Sequence record: NC_100372.1
Length of the DNA: 64,000 nt
DNA from: a phage
Direction: 5' to 3' (one strand)
Under the pieces are notes generated by a model. That model was not told the DNA's origin. It saw only the letters and a program-made list of their open reading frames with translations, and ran no database searches. The stretch's first letter is position 1; every line of letters begins with the position of its first letter. Positions 7,175 to 36,915 of this stretch are shown here, piece by piece. A program made the position numbers and the translations under genes.

Positions 7175-7200
7175 GGGAGGCTTGCGCCTCCCTTTTCCTT
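7175..7200 (+). terminator. Intrinsic terminator (GGGAGGC-TTGC-GCCTCCC + T-run)
   Basis: 7-bp GC stem, tetraloop, TTTTCCTTTT tail immediately after the exonuclease gene. Confidence 0.6.
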
Positions 7201-7211
7201 TTGGAGGCACT

Positions 7212-8018
7212 TTGAGCAAGAAAGAGTCCAACGACAAATATTACACAGACCCCGAGTATGCAGAATATCTTGTTGGTAAAGTAAAAGGTAAGTATGGGAA
7301 TTGTGCATACGTTGAGCCTTCTGCTGGAAAGGGTTCTTTTTCAAAACTATTTTCAGAGATACTGTCGTATGATTTGGTACCAGATCCTGAATTTGAAGGC
7401 CCAACCCCGTGTATTAAGGCAAACTTCTTAGAGGTGTACCCCAAGGCCGATGTATTCATAGGTAATCCTCCATTCGGCAAAAATTCGTCTTTAGCTTGCA
7501 AGTTCTTTAACCACTGTGCATCATTGCTAGAGCCTGGTGGAGCTATAGCCTTCATCTTGCCACGGACTTTTGAAAAAATATTTTTTGCAAACAAACTGGA
7601 CATGTCGATGCACCTTATTTACAGCGAAAGGTGCCCCAAGAACTCGTTTTTACTTAACGGCAAACCTTATGACGTGCCATGTGTTTTCCAAATTTGGGAG
7701 AAAAAGGTGTGCAATAGGGACCCTGTAGAGATCGGGGAGAATAAGTTATTTTCTTTTAGCACACCGGACGATTACGACTTCTGTATAAGACGTGTTGGGT
7801 ATAATGCTGGGAAAGTATTGGGAGAGGATGACCCAAAATCTGAAGAATCAACATATTTCATAAAATCTTTAGTTGATGGTGTTGACAGAGTGTTTGCTGA
7901 GTGCTATTCTTCTTTTCAAGAAGAAGCAGGTAAGACTGCTGGAATGAAGAGTATAGGCAAGAAAGAACTACAATACATTTTGGAGACCAGGTATGATCAA
8001 AAGTATAGACTTGACTAA
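7212..8018 (+). CDS. DNA N6-adenine methyltransferase
   Basis: YYTDPEY, EPSAGKGSF (AdoMet motif I) and GNPPFG (motif IV); start placed at TTG after GGAGG RBS because the track start sits inside the terminator hairpin. Confidence 0.7.
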   Translation: MSKKESNDKYYTDPEYAEYLVGKVKGKYGNCAYVEPSAGKGSFSKLFSEILSYDLVPDPEFEGPTPCIKANFLEVYPKADVFIGNPPFGKNSSLACKFFNHCASLLEPGGAIAFILPRTFEKIFFANKLDMSMHLIYSERCPKNSFLLNGKPYDVPCVFQIWEKKVCNRDPVEIGENKLFSFSTPDDYDFCIRRVGYNAGKVLGEDDPKSEESTYFIKSLVDGVDRVFAECYSSFQEEAGKTAGMKSIGKKELQYILETRYDQKYRLD

Positions 8019-8451
8019 AGAGCTTACTGATGCAAAAGCTTTTGGTGAGACAGCTGTGCAAAGGGGGCAGGCTATGGGGCTGGCACTACCTTTTGTCTTA
8101 AAAGAGCATTTTACAGATTTTCAGCTTATCCGTGGTGAAAAGGGGATGCTTATTCTGGAGCATAAGCTGAGTAAGAAACGTTATAAAGTTGTTTTTAATT
8201 CTAAAGCTCCAACAAAACTTGGATTCAGAACTTACAATCTCAACCCTTCTTATACTAAGGGTGTTGGAAGAGTGGAACAGCAACATCTCAGTGCTAGAGC
8301 TTCTTTAGCCCCTTTGATGCTAAATTTCTCAGGTGTTGCTTTGGGATACCTGGATAAGAAAAGAGTTCTTCATGTTCGTTTTACAGACTTCGTAACGCTT
8401 TTAGCTAACAACGAAGTAGATGAAAAGGGACGTGTAAAAACAAACTTCTAA
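7993..8451 (+). CDS. Hypothetical protein
   Basis: ORF in operon context. Confidence 0.5.
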   Translation: MIKSIDLTKELTDAKAFGETAVQRGQAMGLALPFVLKEHFTDFQLIRGEKGMLILEHKLSKKRYKVVFNSKAPTKLGFRTYNLNPSYTKGVGRVEQQHLSARASLAPLMLNFSGVALGYLDKKRVLHVRFTDFVTLLANNEVDEKGRVKTNF

Positions 8452-8466
8452 TAACGTGCAGTATGA

Positions 8467-8670
8467 TTGGAGACCGCAATGACACCAGAGTTAACAATTC
8501 CAGACAGCTTTTCAGAAAGCTTTATCCCAGAAATGATGAAGAAGATGCAATCACTGCTTGATCAGATTGAGGAGGCTGTTTGGGAAGACGATGCTGTAGT
8601 AGCTAACGAGCTGGTAGATAAGTGTAAAAGTATTATTGATGCAATTGAAGAATACCACGGAGGTTTTTAA
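8467..8670 (+). CDS. Hypothetical small acidic protein
   Basis: ORF with GGAGACC RBS. Confidence 0.45.
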   Translation: METAMTPELTIPDSFSESFIPEMMKKMQSLLDQIEEAVWEDDAVVANELVDKCKSIIDAIEEYHGGF

Positions 8671-33357: not shown

Positions 33358-33573
33358 ATGAAAATAGAAATATTTGGTGGGGCTGACAACACTCGTGGCC
33401 TGATTTACCTTGAATTCGATGAATCTTACCTGCCAGAGGTGTTAAATATAGATGCTGTTGCGGAAGCCCTTGATGTAGACCCTAAAGATCTCTACTCCCG
33501 TGCTGAGATTGATGGTTGGGAAGAGACTCTGAACATTGATTTCAGTGAAGTAGTAGATGAACCTTTGGACTGA
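33358..33573 (+). CDS. Hypothetical small acidic protein (MKIEIFGG start)
   Basis: ATG after AGAGGAG RBS. Confidence 0.45.
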   Translation: MKIEIFGGADNTRGLIYLEFDESYLPEVLNIDAVAEALDVDPKDLYSRAEIDGWEETLNIDFSEVVDEPLD

Positions 33574-33936
33574 CACACAAGTCTGCTTTGCAGGTTTAGC
33601 TGCTCAGCTAAGGTTCTGGAGTCACCTATAACATCTTCCAACTAAATTTCCTACCAACACAGTTACTTACCCACCACACATGACTGTTTGCTTGTTTAGT
33701 GAGCAGTCATCCCTTGACATTCTTGCCTATCTTGATAAAATTAAGTTCTTCTCTTTTCTTTTACCGAGTAATTCGGGTTTTCTGTTCTCTTCGGTTTGAA
33801 GGGGTATGGAGATACACCTGAGTGAACAGGGTGAACAACCGAACCTTTAGCTATGGCATTAGCATGGCGAAGCGGACGGGTGACGAAAGAGGGGCCGGAG
33901 GACACCAGTCACTGCCATATAGTATATGGGTGATAA

Positions 33937-34476
33937 CCTGAAGAGTCTGAATAAGTGTTTAAGTACCAGTCAGAGGAAAAGGTGAATGGTAGCCGAAGGG
34001 GGAGGGGGGTTTCTTATATCTTTAATTTGTATACTTTATATACACTTGTAAACCAATTCAATTAGGATCTGTTTACCACACAAAGTGGATGGAGACAAAT
34101 ATCACCTATTAAACTTGAATTATTTATAGAAAATACCACAACACCGCTTAAGTCTTTGATTTTACACACAAATCTTACAAATATCCTACCTCCATATTTA
34201 ACATACTTGTAACATATTCCATATCCTACCTGCCTGATCAATTTACTCCCACCACATTCCCACATTTTCCCTGTCTGTACTACCCCACCCCCGCCGGGAG
34301 TCCCGTCATATCTGGCTTTCCAGCAAATATCACACCCACAAATATCATCACCTGAAGAGGGTTTCATCCCATAATACCTGCCTTACCTGAAGAGCGCTTC
34401 ATACACCACCTAAATTTTTTAATTGACCCCTCCCCGCCGCCGGAGAGGTTGGCTTTTCCCACACAGGCCTGAAGAG
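33937..34476. repeat. Four dispersed copies of CCTGAAGAG (about 33937, 34351, 34386, 34468)
   Basis: Read directly from the sequence. Confidence 0.6.
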
Positions 34477-34491
34477 TCAGCCAGAAATATC
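34097..34491. repeat. Five copies of AAATATC(A/C) in a CA-rich stretch
   Basis: Copies near 34097, 34179, 34325, 34340, 34485. Confidence 0.5.
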
Positions 34492-35023
34492 TGAACAGGT
34501 CCAGTTATGCCCCGATTTTGTGCTTGTCCTACAGGAGTGCTGCCCTGTCAGGAGCCGGTAGCGACTGGAGTGCTGCCAGGCGGACGGAATGGGAATACTT
34601 CTCATTTTTATAATAATTCTCAAATATCGAGGCAGTGAGGCAAATTAATAGGCCAGGCCGTTCACACAGTGGCACAACATTTGCAATCTATCTTGTGGGA
34701 GTGAATGAGAATACCTATCATTGTGAGAATGGTTATCATTACGGGCAATTTAACATAATACCTATTATGCGCACCACTGGCGATACATACAGGGATTGAT
34801 AACATGGGTTACTGTTTACGCACATAACAATTATATTTATTACTATTTGTGTGGGATATAGTTAGCAACCAATAGATTAGATATTGACCTGCAGACTTCT
34901 GACCGTCCAGACGTCTAAACGCCCACACAACAAGGATTATACATACATTCCTGAATGTAAACAGGGCCGCAAAAAATGCTACCATACCAGTTTGTAAATT
35001 TTTCATGCAGCACTTGACAAAGA

Positions 35024-35107
35024 GGAGAAAAACTTGTCTGACACAATGTGACAAAATTGCCACTTTTGACACTTTTACCTTTGACACAATATGACACAAT
35101 AACGGCT
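35024..35107. repeat. Array of TTGACA/TGACAC hexamers including three TGACACAAT
   Basis: Six TGACA(A/C) within 85 bp. Confidence 0.6.
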
Positions 35108-35136
35108 GTTACTATTCCATATCTCACTGTTTACGT

Positions 35137-35190
35137 ATAGACTGTTTACGCCTGAATAGTTTACGCCCAAACTGTTTACACAGAGATGAT
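35137..35190. repeat. Tandem CTGTTTAC(G/A) iteron-like repeats x4 (further copies near 34812 and 35583)
   Basis: actgtttacg, actgtttacg, tagtttacg, actgtttaca in series. Confidence 0.6.
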
Positions 35191-35202
35191 AAGCCATGAC
35201 AT

Positions 35203-35432
35203 TCGTTTGCATGAAAACAATTAACAAGTTAATAATATATGACATAATATAAAAGCAGGGCAACTATTAGAAGATCTATAGTTGCCTTGCTTGTTATGTC
35301 ATGATTAACTAAATACAAGGCAACTATGATCTGAATAATAGATTGCAGAAAAACTATCACGGGGGTGATTGTTACTGCTTTTATATTATGTCGCGACTCC
35401 GTCGCGCCATGCCATTCGTTTGCATAGTTGCC
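35203..35432. repeat. Nested symmetry block: 20-bp direct repeat, 15-bp perfect inverted repeat, four GGCAACTAT copies
   Basis: Direct repeat GCCATGNCATTCGTTTGCAT at 35203 and 35406; inverted arms GACATAATATAAAAG at 35251-35265 and 35378-35392; GGCAACTAT at 35269 and 35329 with reverse complements at 35288 and 35424. Confidence 0.65.
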
Positions 35433-36039
35433 TTATTGTTACAGGTAAAACAATTACATTATTAATTATTTCTTATCTTTCTCTTAGTCATCTAATGATT
35501 CCAGTCAGTATAGTAATGTACAGTAAACATTAGACGACTAAAGATTTCTCTGTGTATAATAACTTATCGTGACAATTTCGAACTGTTTACGAAAAATGTT
35601 GACACCTGAGCTGATTTATGTTATGCAGTTTACACGAATAATTATTTTATGCAGGTATTGACTATTCCGTTATTCTGTGGTTGGAATAAATACTTTGCAG
35701 ACTATAGAATGGCGTGCGTACGTGAATTCTGAGATCTGGCGGCTATAGTTATACTCGATTTTTCGCGTAGAACACGCTTTCGATGCTGTGTAAGTGTATG
35801 ACTTATAAAGATTTTTAGTTGTTGACAAGATATTGGAGATGTGCATCAGGTTAAAATTTGTGCAATAGCGGCATTACGTGCACTTTTGGGAGAGAAAACG
35901 GGTAAAAATGGCCCTGCTACCACACAATGAAAGATTATGCAATGGTTATTTTCCATGTATATTTGTACAGTATGTGGGATTGATGGCTAGTCAATTATTC
36001 CACTTGCCAGGTAGGGCCGTTTATGGTAGGAGAAGAGCA

Positions 36040-36068
36040 GACAAAAAGAAAGGGGCCTTTAAGCCCCT
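36040..36068 (-). terminator. Intrinsic terminator for the leftward block (AAGGGGC-loop-GCCCCTT with U-run on the minus strand)
   Basis: Hairpin followed on the minus strand by TTTCTTTTT, just downstream of gene 36088..36507. Confidence 0.5.
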
Positions 36069-36087
36069 TGATAATTCAGTTAAGAAA

Positions 36088-36507
36088 TTATAATGATTCG
36101 TATATTTCAAAAATCCGATTTGCCAGGTCGTTACGGTAGCGGAATTTTTCATCGCGCTTGATCATTAAATCCTTATAGCCGTACTCTTTAAGCACTTCAT
36201 TAACTTTATAGCGGCATACCTGCATATTATCTTGAGCGTCACCAATAAACTTGTTGCTGTGGTGCATTGCTTTAATTTCTTCTTCCAGGACCAGGGCAAC
36301 TACCCGGACCGGATCAAGCTGGTAGGCGGTAACATCTATGCGGCATTGTAGACGGCTTTTAACGTCTGCCACCGGATATACTGCAACCTCTTCCCCGTCA
36401 ACATTGACAATAATTAGTTTACCATCGATTTCGAATCCTTTCGCCGCCGGACCGTGACAAAAAGCGTTATCAAAGCTATATGCCGGATTATCAGATTTAA
36501 TGTTCAT
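36088..36507 (-). CDS. Hypothetical protein
   Basis: ORF with upstream promoter. Confidence 0.5.
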   Translation of the reverse strand: MNIKSDNPAYSFDNAFCHGPAAKGFEIDGKLIIVNVDGEEVAVYPVADVKSRLQCRIDVTAYQLDPVRVVALVLEEEIKAMHHSNKFIGDAQDNMQVCRYKVNEVLKEYGYKDLMIKRDEKFRYRNDLANRIFEIYESL

Positions 36508-36651: not shown

Positions 36652-36915
36652 TTATTTGTTGCTCATCCAGTTTTCCCAAGCTGCCTGATAATCTGCCTCA
36701 CTACGGCGGATCTCTTCTTGTTCTTCAAGCCGGATCTCTTCTTCCAGGTACCCCAAGATATCGGCTTTTTTGGTCTGGCGTAACATCCAATCGTCTTTTT
36801 TGCGAGTAAAGATCTTGTACGCTTTCTCGCAAACTTCTTTTTTGCTACCTTTTTGGACTTCAAGAATTCTGTAAGCCATGTACTGAACTAGTTTGAGCTG
36901 GTCAAGACGTTTCAT
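36652..36915 (-). CDS. Hypothetical protein
   Basis: ORF. Confidence 0.5.
   Translation of the reverse strand: MKRLDQLKLVQYMAYRILEVQKGSKKEVCEKAYKIFTRKKDDWMLRQTKKADILGYLEEEIRLEEQEEIRRSEADYQAAWENWMSNK

Follow-up and report, generated by a model that had tools for sequence, protein, structure and literature searches.

In the genome of phage rV5, the segment between genes 163 and 164 (104013-106618) contains no open reading frames (ORFs) (Kropinski et al. 2013, Virol J 10:76, PMC3606486). Two transcription units converge there, and the skew changes at 104425-105475; bidirectional terminators were expected at this place, but were found only between genes 26 and 27 (PMC3606486). The same authors did not place the replication origin; the phage encodes a primase/helicase with a GP4d_helicase domain, and a replication initiator protein was not reported (PMC3606486). 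The paper records the absence of ORFs and the unlocated terminators; it describes no promoter, RNA, repeats or function for this box, and no later paper explaining the rV5-type box was found in the literature. The present analysis concerns the corresponding box in a phage sequence of 64,000 nucleotides (nt) (NC_100372.1; the window), a Vequintavirus (rV5-like) genome in which a first-pass annotation, made from the letters alone, had flagged the stretch 33800-34491 for its strand bias and its repeats. Two elements are described there: module A, a candidate non-coding RNA (ncRNA) gene, and module B, a G-starved tract rich in C and A (Table 1).

The flagged stretch is the left third of a 2.5-kb box (33574-36087) that holds no credible ORF. 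Matches on rV5-type genomes fall at ~104.1-105.0 kb, which is the locus of the rV5 box. As in rV5, two gene blocks converge on it, since the genes to the left lie on the plus strand, the last ending at 33573, and those to the right, a gene for a 139-amino-acid (aa) protein (36088-36507) and its neighbours, lie on the minus strand. The leftward unit ends in a strong intrinsic terminator at 36069-36050; a promoter/terminator scan found no canonical intrinsic terminator for the rightward unit. When the 1.8 kb around the flagged stretch is used as a query, 121 phage records match at 88-98% identity, the best being Escherichia phage S127 BCL3 (97.6%); 106 of them cover at least 80% of the query, and the names of 118 mark them as Vequintavirus relatives (98 Escherichia, 19 'Campylobacter' and 1 Vequintavirinae). 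In an alignment of 16 Vequintavirus genomes, which underlies the comparisons within the genus given below, the box is present in every genome and is conserved at least as well as the genes around it. The explanation that best accounts for the whole is that module A is an ncRNA gene and module B a Rho-type stop; we put its probability at roughly 0.4.

Module A is the most conserved DNA in its neighbourhood. Only 12 of the 264 columns from 33748 to 34011 vary (4.5%; mean pairwise identity 99.0%), compared with 358 of 1347 columns (26.6%) in the five flanking coding sequences (Fisher P 2e-18). The invariant block has its left edge at a predicted transcription start and its right edge at the G-tract, and invariance stops at 34012. 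The start, predicted at ~33745-33748, belongs to a near-consensus sigma-70 promoter, P_A, which scores 11/12 with an extended -10 TG in a consensus scan. In one relative (L004), the spacer has gained 2 nt and is changed at 8 of its 16 positions, and both hexamers are intact; invariance restarts exactly at ~33748, the predicted start. A divergent lineage, described below, has TTGCAA-N17-TGcTATAAT at the same place. What is kept upstream of the block is a promoter and not a particular sequence, the behaviour looked for in a sigma-70 ncRNA gene. No minus-strand promoter-like site was found in 33700-34100, and no annotation covers module A in 14 related GenBank records.

Table 1. Features of the left part of the non-coding box, in window coordinates
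Feature	Position	Strand	Description
Promoter P_A	33714..33741	+	TTGACA (33714-33719), 16-nt spacer, TGaTAAAAT extended -10
Module A, candidate ~262-nt structured ncRNA	33748..34009	+	CU-rich 5' leader, purine-rich body, 3' G5AG6 followed by TTTCTT
P0, 5' strand CUUCUCUUUUCUUUU	33748..33762	+	Predicted to pair with 33995-34009; closing helix joining CU leader and G-tract
P1 hairpin, CCGAG-UAA-UUCGG	33764..33776	+	Followed by GUUUUCUGUU; terminator-like in the scan
P2 hairpin	33779..33812	+	Pyrimidine 5' arm, GGUUU loop, purine 3' arm; in the lowest-energy fold of both lineages
P3, candidate helix	33815-33820 with 33877-33882	+	CACC/GGUG against CGAC/GUCG; homology of the 3' strand not demonstrable by sequence
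Cross-lineage stretch CTGAGTGAACAG(G/C)GTGAACA(A/T)CCGAA	33818..33843	+	Two GTGAACA copies
P5 hairpin, GUCAC-UG-CCAUAU-AGU-AUAUGG-GUGAU	33908..33934	+	Both lineages
CCTGAAGAG copy 1	33937..33945	+	Inside module A
Polypurine tract GAAGGGGGAGGGGGG	33995..34009	+	3' strand of P0, end of invariant block; TTTCTT next
AT-rich variable spacer	34010..34100		27% GC; 67% of columns vary
Module B	34096..34495	+	G-depleted, C/A-rich tract with conserved direct repeats
Paired AAATATC, CAAATATC-N5-CACAAATATCA	34325..34346	+	Also in L003, L155, L168 and A73
CCTGAAGAG copy 2 (CCTGAAGAGGGTTTCAT)	34351..34359	+	L003 lineage: CCTGAAGAGGGCTTCAT, then T8-T10
CCTGAAGAG copy 3 (CCTGAAGAGCGCTTCAT)	34386..34394	+	
CCTGAAGAG copy 4 (CCCACACAGGCCTGAAGAGTCAG)	34468..34476	+	L003 lineage: CCACACACGGCCTGAAGAGTCAA

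The divergent lineage consists of three sequences. An IMG/VR contig of 140.6 kb (L003), found by motif counting, contains the whole box in diverged but collinear form, in blocks of 72-76% identity, and the pattern CAAATATC-N-CACAAATATCA led to two further members of the same lineage, L155 and L168. (The IMG/VR pattern CCTGAAGAG-N-CCTGAAGAG was abandoned, being swamped by matches unrelated to the locus, presumably coding Pro-Glu-Glu (PEE) repeats.) Module A of this lineage is ~55% identical to that of the window overall; it keeps the promoter, the CU-rich leader, the stretch containing the two GTGAACA copies (with two differences between the lineages in the BLAST and MAFFT alignments), CCTGAAGAG, GTTTAAGTACCAG and a G-tract of the form G6-TA-G5. 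Between L003 and L155, module A is 96.9% identical and the flanks 83-86%. Searches with nhmmer and cmsearch place homologues of module A only in Vequintavirus and in the L003/L155/L168 lineage; with nhmmer and a covariance model, none was found in phAPEC8, L005, A73 or four other genera of the Vequintavirinae. phAPEC8 and L005, considered as further sources, share the gene for the 139-aa neighbour and not the non-coding DNA. Synteny via the phrog_639 regulator was likewise set aside as a route to other Vequintavirinae genera: the gene order differs there, and no comparable box adjoins the gene.

The RNA of module A is predicted to fold alike in the two lineages. In folds computed for the window with P1 and P3 enforced, and for L003 without constraint, P0, P1, P2 and P5 are common to both. 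P0 is part of the minimum free energy (MFE) structure in each (module positions 1-15/248-262 in the window and 1-11/263-274 in L003) and contains 7 G-U pairs. P1 reads CCAGAA-UACGC-UUCUGG in L003, with an extra A-U pair in both arms and a G-U pair changed to A-U. P5 becomes ACUGC-G-AUGU-AAU-AUAU-GCAGU in L003, so that its outer stem is ACUGC/GCAGU where the window has GUCAC/GUGAU; in L155 a G-U pair is replaced by G-C, and within Vequintavirus the common changes (33921, 33922) are in the loop. In an alignment that was not fitted to any structure (MAFFT followed by RNAalifold, over the 5' 103 nt), there are 23 pairs, of which 5 have changed on both sides and 1 is broken; four of the five doubly changed pairs sit in P2. 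The fold z-score of module A on the plus strand is -1.87 in the window and -1.84 in L003, with -0.42 on the minus strand, and because many of the pairs in P0 and P2 are G-U, the helices could exist only in plus-strand RNA. A clean 26-nt deletion in L168 removes exactly one local hairpin, the one holding copy 1 of CCTGAAGAG; L146 has CCTGAAAAG. The GC-rich, hairpin-capable GAGGGGCCGGAGG to which the first-pass annotation had drawn attention is present at 33889-33901, and is not conserved in the second lineage.

As a medium-sized, structured candidate RNA carried by a phage, module A is comparable to GOLLD, ROOL, 6S, tmRNA, group I introns and hammerheads; none of these families reaches E = 10 within it or within module B. 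The Rfam scan that had been proposed as a check yielded no family: at gathering thresholds there are 0 matches in the whole window, and at E up to 10 the segment 33400-36300 has four chance-level matches, none of them in 33748-34009 and only one inside module B (28 nt of a miRNA model, E 7.8). A known RNA family is ruled out by these gathering and permissive scans, both empty for module A, and ARAGORN finds no tRNA or tmRNA in the window. The string CUGAAGAG (CUGAAGA) fits the hammerhead CUGANGA box; a hammerhead ribozyme was rejected, as neither a GAAA box nor a stem II/III arrangement follows CUGAAGAG and there is no Rfam match. Module A is filed as lying outside the described RNA families and as belonging to the general class of phage-encoded ncRNAs.

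Taken together, these comparisons argue that module A is probably a transcribed, structured ncRNA gene that has escaped annotation. A number of observations weigh against this reading or against its union with a Rho-type stop. The fold z-scores are only about -1.9, and since two lineages only are available, the covariation amounts to roughly one divergence event. P1 and P3 are absent from the window's own MFE structure, and a fold made to include them is 9.7 kcal/mol less stable. L145 and L009 each have a single substitution that disrupts one pair (in L009, a G to A change in the P5 stem at 33928). A covariance model built on the window structure has 93% of cells paired over 18 sequences, and the alignment fitted to it contains 15 pairs changed on both sides (2.9 +/- 1.5 when shuffled, 1-3 with slid partners); this result is discounted because fitting to the model biases the alignment in favour of the structure, parts of the L003 rows are out of place and helix 7 is mis-specified. 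The two GTGAACA copies of module A (GTGAACA is the reverse complement of TGTTCAC, and both are recovered by a TGTTYAC scan) belong to a TGTTYAC family of DNA motifs that is enriched throughout the box, which hints at a role at the level of DNA. There is no canonical hairpin and U-tract at 34009, and the 3' end of module A is undefined for want of such a terminator; all that lies there is the long-range helix P0 followed by UUUCUU, and the U-run is absent from the second lineage. A published Vequintavirus transcriptome or RNA-seq study was looked for and not found. Finally, a Rho loading (rut) zone needs no invariant 9- to 11-mers and no near-invariant runs of up to 60 nt, such as module B contains.

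Module B differs from module A in composition and in what is conserved. The earlier description of 33800-34010 as purine-rich and of 34020-34440 as CA-rich agrees with the counts: the first is 66% purine (G 35.5%, C 15.6%), the second has A 30%, C 29% and G 10%. The purine-rich part ranks second among the 200-nt skew windows, and coding regions reach a similar level. The 200-nt window from 34096 has a GC skew of -0.70 (G 6%, C 32%), the extreme of the 64 kb at the 80-, 200- and 400-nt scales (next -0.42; standard deviation 0.17). The four copies of CCTGAAGAG that had been reported begin at 33937, 34351, 34386 and 34468, all on the plus strand, an excess with a Poisson P of ~7e-11 for 692 nt. 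The five reported copies of AAATATC (34097, 34179, 34325, 34340 and 34485, all on the plus strand) are joined by a sixth at 34622 on the same strand (local excess, Poisson P ~4e-7). The window as a whole has 9 copies of CCTGAAGAG against 0.6 expected; the five outside the region (9500, 10367, 17001 and 19436 on the plus strand, 61362 on the minus strand) are in-frame x-Pro-Glu-Glu codons in genes, so that the genome-wide excess is explained without any link to the non-coding copies.

Overall, module B is less conserved than module A (23% variable columns); it nevertheless includes a run of 60 nt (34289-34348) in which at most 1 of the 16 genomes differs at each position. Several of its pieces recur in the L003 lineage, namely GGAGTCCCGT, CAAATATC-N5-CACAAATATCA, CCTGAAGAGGG(T/C)TTCAT and CCACACA(C)GGCCTGAAGAGTCA. 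Recognisable pieces, CACAAATATCA and five copies of CCACAGAG, are also present in A73, a member of the Vequintavirinae with no genus in its record. There they occur at 7180-7500 on the minus strand (L007), in an intergenic tract poor in G and rich in C and A that has five CCACAGAG(T/G) and CACAAATATCA; this tract corresponds distantly to module B, in rearranged form, no module A being detectable with it, and a G5AG5AG5 run lies ~300 nt beyond it. The depletion of G, too, is kept in three lineages (the window, L003 and A73).

Unlike module A, module B has no folding signal (z +0.04 on the plus strand, -0.48 on the minus strand), and none appears when the two modules are folded jointly (z +1.0). 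The CCTGAAGAG copies share no common hairpin and fold inconsistently with one another; a common RNA hairpin or a hammerhead core is rejected on this account, and the motif would instead be read as sequence, by a binder of DNA or of unfolded RNA. In L003, L155 and L168, ~1 kb of extra DNA stands in the AT-rich spacer between the modules. In L003 this DNA holds, at 7716-8486 (plus strand of the locus), a gene for a 256-aa HNH homing endonuclease, antisense to module A; a copy of CCTGAAGAGTCAA, in reverse complement, overlaps the sigma-70-like promoter of the gene, TTGACT-N17-TGgTATATT. Because of this insertion, A and B are separable, with A ending at or near the G-tract, and one long structured RNA with pairing between the G-rich and C-rich parts is rejected on the joint z-score and the insertion alike.

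The first-pass annotation had proposed 'a transcribed structured RNA or a single-strand-specific function' for the stretch as a whole. The first half of that proposal suits the purine-rich part, 33748-34009, with its sigma-70 promoter, its near-invariance from the predicted start, its compensatory helix changes and its negative z-scores; it fails for the CA-rich part, whose z-scores are near zero or positive and whose CCTGAAGAG copies have no hairpin in common. For the latter, a strand-specific, single-strand function is the best reading. The comparative folding suggested at the time showed helices kept through two-sided changes across two lineages, modest z-scores, and no folding signal in the CA-rich part.

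Other ideas about module B and its surroundings were tried and dropped. G-quadruplexes on the minus strand at 34284 and 34429 were rejected, as the C-runs are not conserved within the genus. A KOPS/FtsK connection (GGGGAGGG near a protein annotated 'FtsK') was rejected as well, since that protein has no FtsK-gamma match. The protein, of 87 aa, is encoded at 36652-36915 on the minus strand, and several relatives label it 'DNA translocase FtsK'. Since neither FtsK nor FtsK-gamma matches it in Pfam and the function of its PHROG is unknown, the label looks unfounded. Just beyond module B, 34496-34570 is an indel-prone segment (93% variable columns) with two GGAGTGCTGCC repeats, replaced by different sequence in several relatives. 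An ops-like string within it, CGGTAGCG (34557-34564), is treated as chance, because the segment is non-conserved and indel-prone and the TG pause bases are missing.

How the two modules could work together is suggested by what is known of Rho-dependent terminators. Like the rut regions of lambda tR1 and trp t', module B is long, C-rich, G-poor, unstructured and untranslated, and lies at the end of a unit that has no intrinsic terminator. A rut zone is expected to span ~80 nt or more of weakly structured RNA in which C clearly exceeds G, and 34096-34295 has C 32%, G 6% and a z-score of +0.04. Module B differs from known rut sites, which are defined by composition, in its invariant, repeated 9- to 11-mers. 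The rut-like composition of B and the lack of a canonical intrinsic terminator for the rightward unit are the grounds for coupling an ncRNA gene to a Rho-type stop. In this scheme, host RNA polymerase with sigma-70 would start at P_A and make a purine-rich transcript of ~262 nt, which would fold into a closed, multi-hairpin structure as its CU-rich 5' leader pairs with the 3' G5AG6. Module B, in the rightward transcript, would provide ~400 nt of C-rich, G-starved, unstructured RNA on which Rho could load, and would halt the ncRNA transcript, as well as transcripts running on from the rightward block, before they could enter the convergent block as antisense; the CCTGAAGAG and CACAAATATCA repeats would be recognition sites for some factor. 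The composition, the pattern of conservation, the kept promoter, the compensated helices, the absence of structure in B and the separability of the modules are observed; we infer transcription, the 3' end of the RNA, dependence on Rho and the target of the RNA. Taken on its own, the proposal that module B is a zone of Rho loading and termination is tentative and, on balance, doubtful, because the invariant motifs stay unexplained by it.

A hairpin without a U-tract, UUAGCU-GCUC-AGCUAA, lies at 33596-33611, directly after the last plus-strand gene. One of its U-A pairs is U-G in most relatives, through an A to G change. This hairpin may be an mRNA 3' stabiliser or a processing site.

The main rival account of the same features, somewhat unlikely in our judgement, takes the whole box as the phage's replication origin, with A and B as its primer-RNA and displaced-strand parts. 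The G-rich polypurine 3' tract of the P_A transcript would remain annealed as an R-loop, and the leading strand would start at ~34010, into the spacer; the displaced plus strand of module B, being without G, would present its motifs for the loading or priming of a T7-gp4-like primase-helicase, and the TGTTYAC elements would act as iterons for an initiator. The models for such an origin, ColE1 RNA II, the T7 primary origin, T4 oriF/oriG, mitochondrial CSB II and the retroviral polypurine tract, serve here as leads, not as tests. ColE1 RNA II is a structured primer of several hundred nt and so sets a precedent. As in these primer-transcript origins, a promoter here points toward a G-rich polypurine tract (GAAGGGGGAGGGGGG-TTT) that is followed by AT-rich DNA; the strong promoter, the 15-nt tract and the 27% GC spacer directly after it are present, and of the 7 windows of 100 nt that are richest in AT in the 64 kb, three lie in the box, the spacer among them. 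The locus differs in having no sequence similarity to plasmid origins, no antisense promoter like that of RNA I, and convergent rather than divergent transcription.

The box also has features of iteron origins, for which lambda ori and P4 ori/crr are the nearest models: TGTTYAC occurs at least 10 times in both orientations over 1.8 kb, and there is a regular array beside AT-rich DNA. The 2.5-kb box has 10 of the 32 copies of TGTTYAC in the window (12-fold enriched, P 2e-8). The array at 35127-35179 comprises CTGTTTAC three times exactly and the variant TAGTTTAC, at a spacing of 15 nt, next to DNA of 24-26% GC; TGACAC occurs five times at 35039-35100, in a gap-rich, poorly aligned segment that may reflect differences in copy number. 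Perfect 18-nt inverted repeats lie further right in the box, the non-coding regions of relatives include stretches of 14-20% GC, and DnaA-box-like sites number 16 where 8 are expected. GGTGAACA is the reverse complement of the P4 type I iteron, TGTTCACC, an 8-mer agreement that may be chance. Both strand asymmetries and the motifs of module B would be accounted for. The primase/helicase with its GP4d_helicase domain, the unreported initiator and the unplaced origin of rV5 (PMC3606486) also fit.

Several points tell against an origin. The box lies where transcription converges, which is the usual site for forks and transcripts to terminate and not to initiate. R-loop priming demands little of the RNA sequence, and 262 invariant nt with conserved hairpins exceed what it would require; the G-tract, moreover, is interrupted by U in the second lineage and is predicted to be sequestered in P0 by pairing with the leader. 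Module A has no promoter for an antisense regulator, and the box has no similarity to plasmid or E. coli origins. The iteron arrays are more than 1 kb from the flagged stretch, which has only three TGTTYAC copies inside it, and no initiator gene was identified among the small neighbouring proteins, which have no informative domain matches. An origin whose design would be new for a virulent myovirus, in which A and B together would be transcription-primed by a structured primer of ~260 nt, made by host polymerase and kept annealed through its G5AG6 as at mitochondrial CSB II or a retroviral polypurine tract, and in which the displaced strand would have been purged of G to stay unfolded and to present CCTGAAGAG(TC) and CACAAATATCA for loading of the primase-helicase, is less probable still. 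Module A may instead be a trans-acting riboregulator without known relatives, with a Rho-attracting tail that modulates host termination.

Two other explanations for the box as a piece of DNA were excluded. According to PhageTerm results in the literature, Vequintavirus genomes are circularly permuted, and rV5 is described likewise (PMC3606486), which speaks against a genome terminus or terminal repeat. Host- or plasmid-derived sequence is excluded, since none of 5,426 E. coli genomes has a match and the only 'plasmid' matched is a whole vequintavirus genome. That record, CP057073.1 (4503-6984), is a 137.6-kb 'plasmid' of an E. coli from cattle faeces which amounts to a complete vequintavirus genome, 89.8% identical over the box, and suggests a carrier state or contamination of the culture.

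Some further properties of the box are recorded here for their own sake. At 35241-35441, the perfect 18-nt inverted repeat GACATAATATAAAAGCAG / CTGCTTTTATATTATGTC has its arms 116 nt apart and is accompanied by four copies of CAAGGCAACTAT in both orientations; the surroundings have 24-26% GC and are almost invariant in the genus. GATC is depleted in 33574-36087 (5 sites against ~14 expected from the density in the window). DnaA-box-like 9-mers are ~2-fold over-represented in the box, with perfect matches at 34160 on the plus strand and 35551 on the minus strand.

The conserved motifs could also be read as duplex DNA: CCTGAAGAG, CACAAATATCA, GGAGTCCCGT and TGTTYAC would be operators, bound by a phage protein or by several (the phrog_639 regulator, whose gene lies 2 kb upstream, is one example), the box would be a regulatory or nucleoprotein hub, and the strand bias would be a by-product of direct repeats. 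The motifs are invariant or nearly so in the genus and persist from lineage to lineage, with the intervening sequence diverging to ~74%, they share no RNA hairpin, and a small regulator-like gene is nearby. Copies 2 and 3 of CCTGAAGAG form palindromes (TGAAG-N4-CTTCA), as does copy 4 (CTGA-AGAG-TCAG), and the good leftward promoter before the HNH gene of the L003 lineage takes its -35 element and spacer from one copy in reverse complement. Duplex sites, however, give no reason for 400 nt of G-depleted DNA to separate them or for that depletion to be conserved in three lineages; all copies have one orientation, at irregular distances (414, 35 and 82 nt); no binding protein has been identified, the neighbouring 87-aa 'FtsK' having no Pfam support; and the compensatory helix changes in module A would be left without an account. 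We regard an operator array as improbable, on a par with the origin of new design.

A decayed or overlooked coding sequence, in which the repeats would be remnants or parts of small genes and CCTGAAGAG would encode Pro-Glu-Glu, is very improbable: for all that the five copies outside the box are in-frame PEE codons, that the pattern CCTGAAGAG-NNN-TTCAT varies mainly in its NNN triplet and that some GenBank records call small ORFs in the box, the copies within it stand in different frames with stops within a few codons, relatives show frameshifting indels and T-runs of variable length, third-codon positions in module A are as invariant as the others, and no ORF of the box is shared with the divergent lineage. 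The stop-free segments of the region give implausible peptides with no PHROG or Pfam match, and a 101-aa minus-strand ORF (34062-34367) carries different frameshifting indels in different relatives, so the first-pass description of the stretch as non-coding is borne out. The shotgun proteome study of rV5 likewise describes the region as being without ORFs (PMC3606486).

Two observations concern the relatives in which the box is found. Roughly 5.7 kb to the left of the box, within the block of rightward genes leading into it, relatives have an annotated gene for HPF, the ribosome hibernation promoting factor (L001, 267-584; L002, 331-642). The 19 matching records named 'Campylobacter phage' have accessions of the form MG0656xx; the sole one opened, MG065644.1 (L011), is marked UNVERIFIED, gives C. 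jejuni as host, is classified as Vequintavirus and has a box ~89% identical to that of the window. The C. jejuni or Campylobacter host labels of such records look doubtful.

Phages of the rV5 type are widely isolated and are used therapeutically and for biocontrol against E. coli O157 and other pathogenic strains, and the box, carried by ~120 matching database records, has stood unexplained since 2013. The analysis adds that its most conserved part is a promoter-driven candidate for a structured RNA of no known family, a feature concrete enough to be annotated. The G-starved tract, with its C-over-G skew between convergent phage operons, offers a natural test case for Rho termination as against a function in single-stranded DNA. 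If module A is a riboregulator, it would represent a new family of phage ncRNA; if it is a primer RNA, it would locate the origin that the authors of the rV5 work left unplaced.

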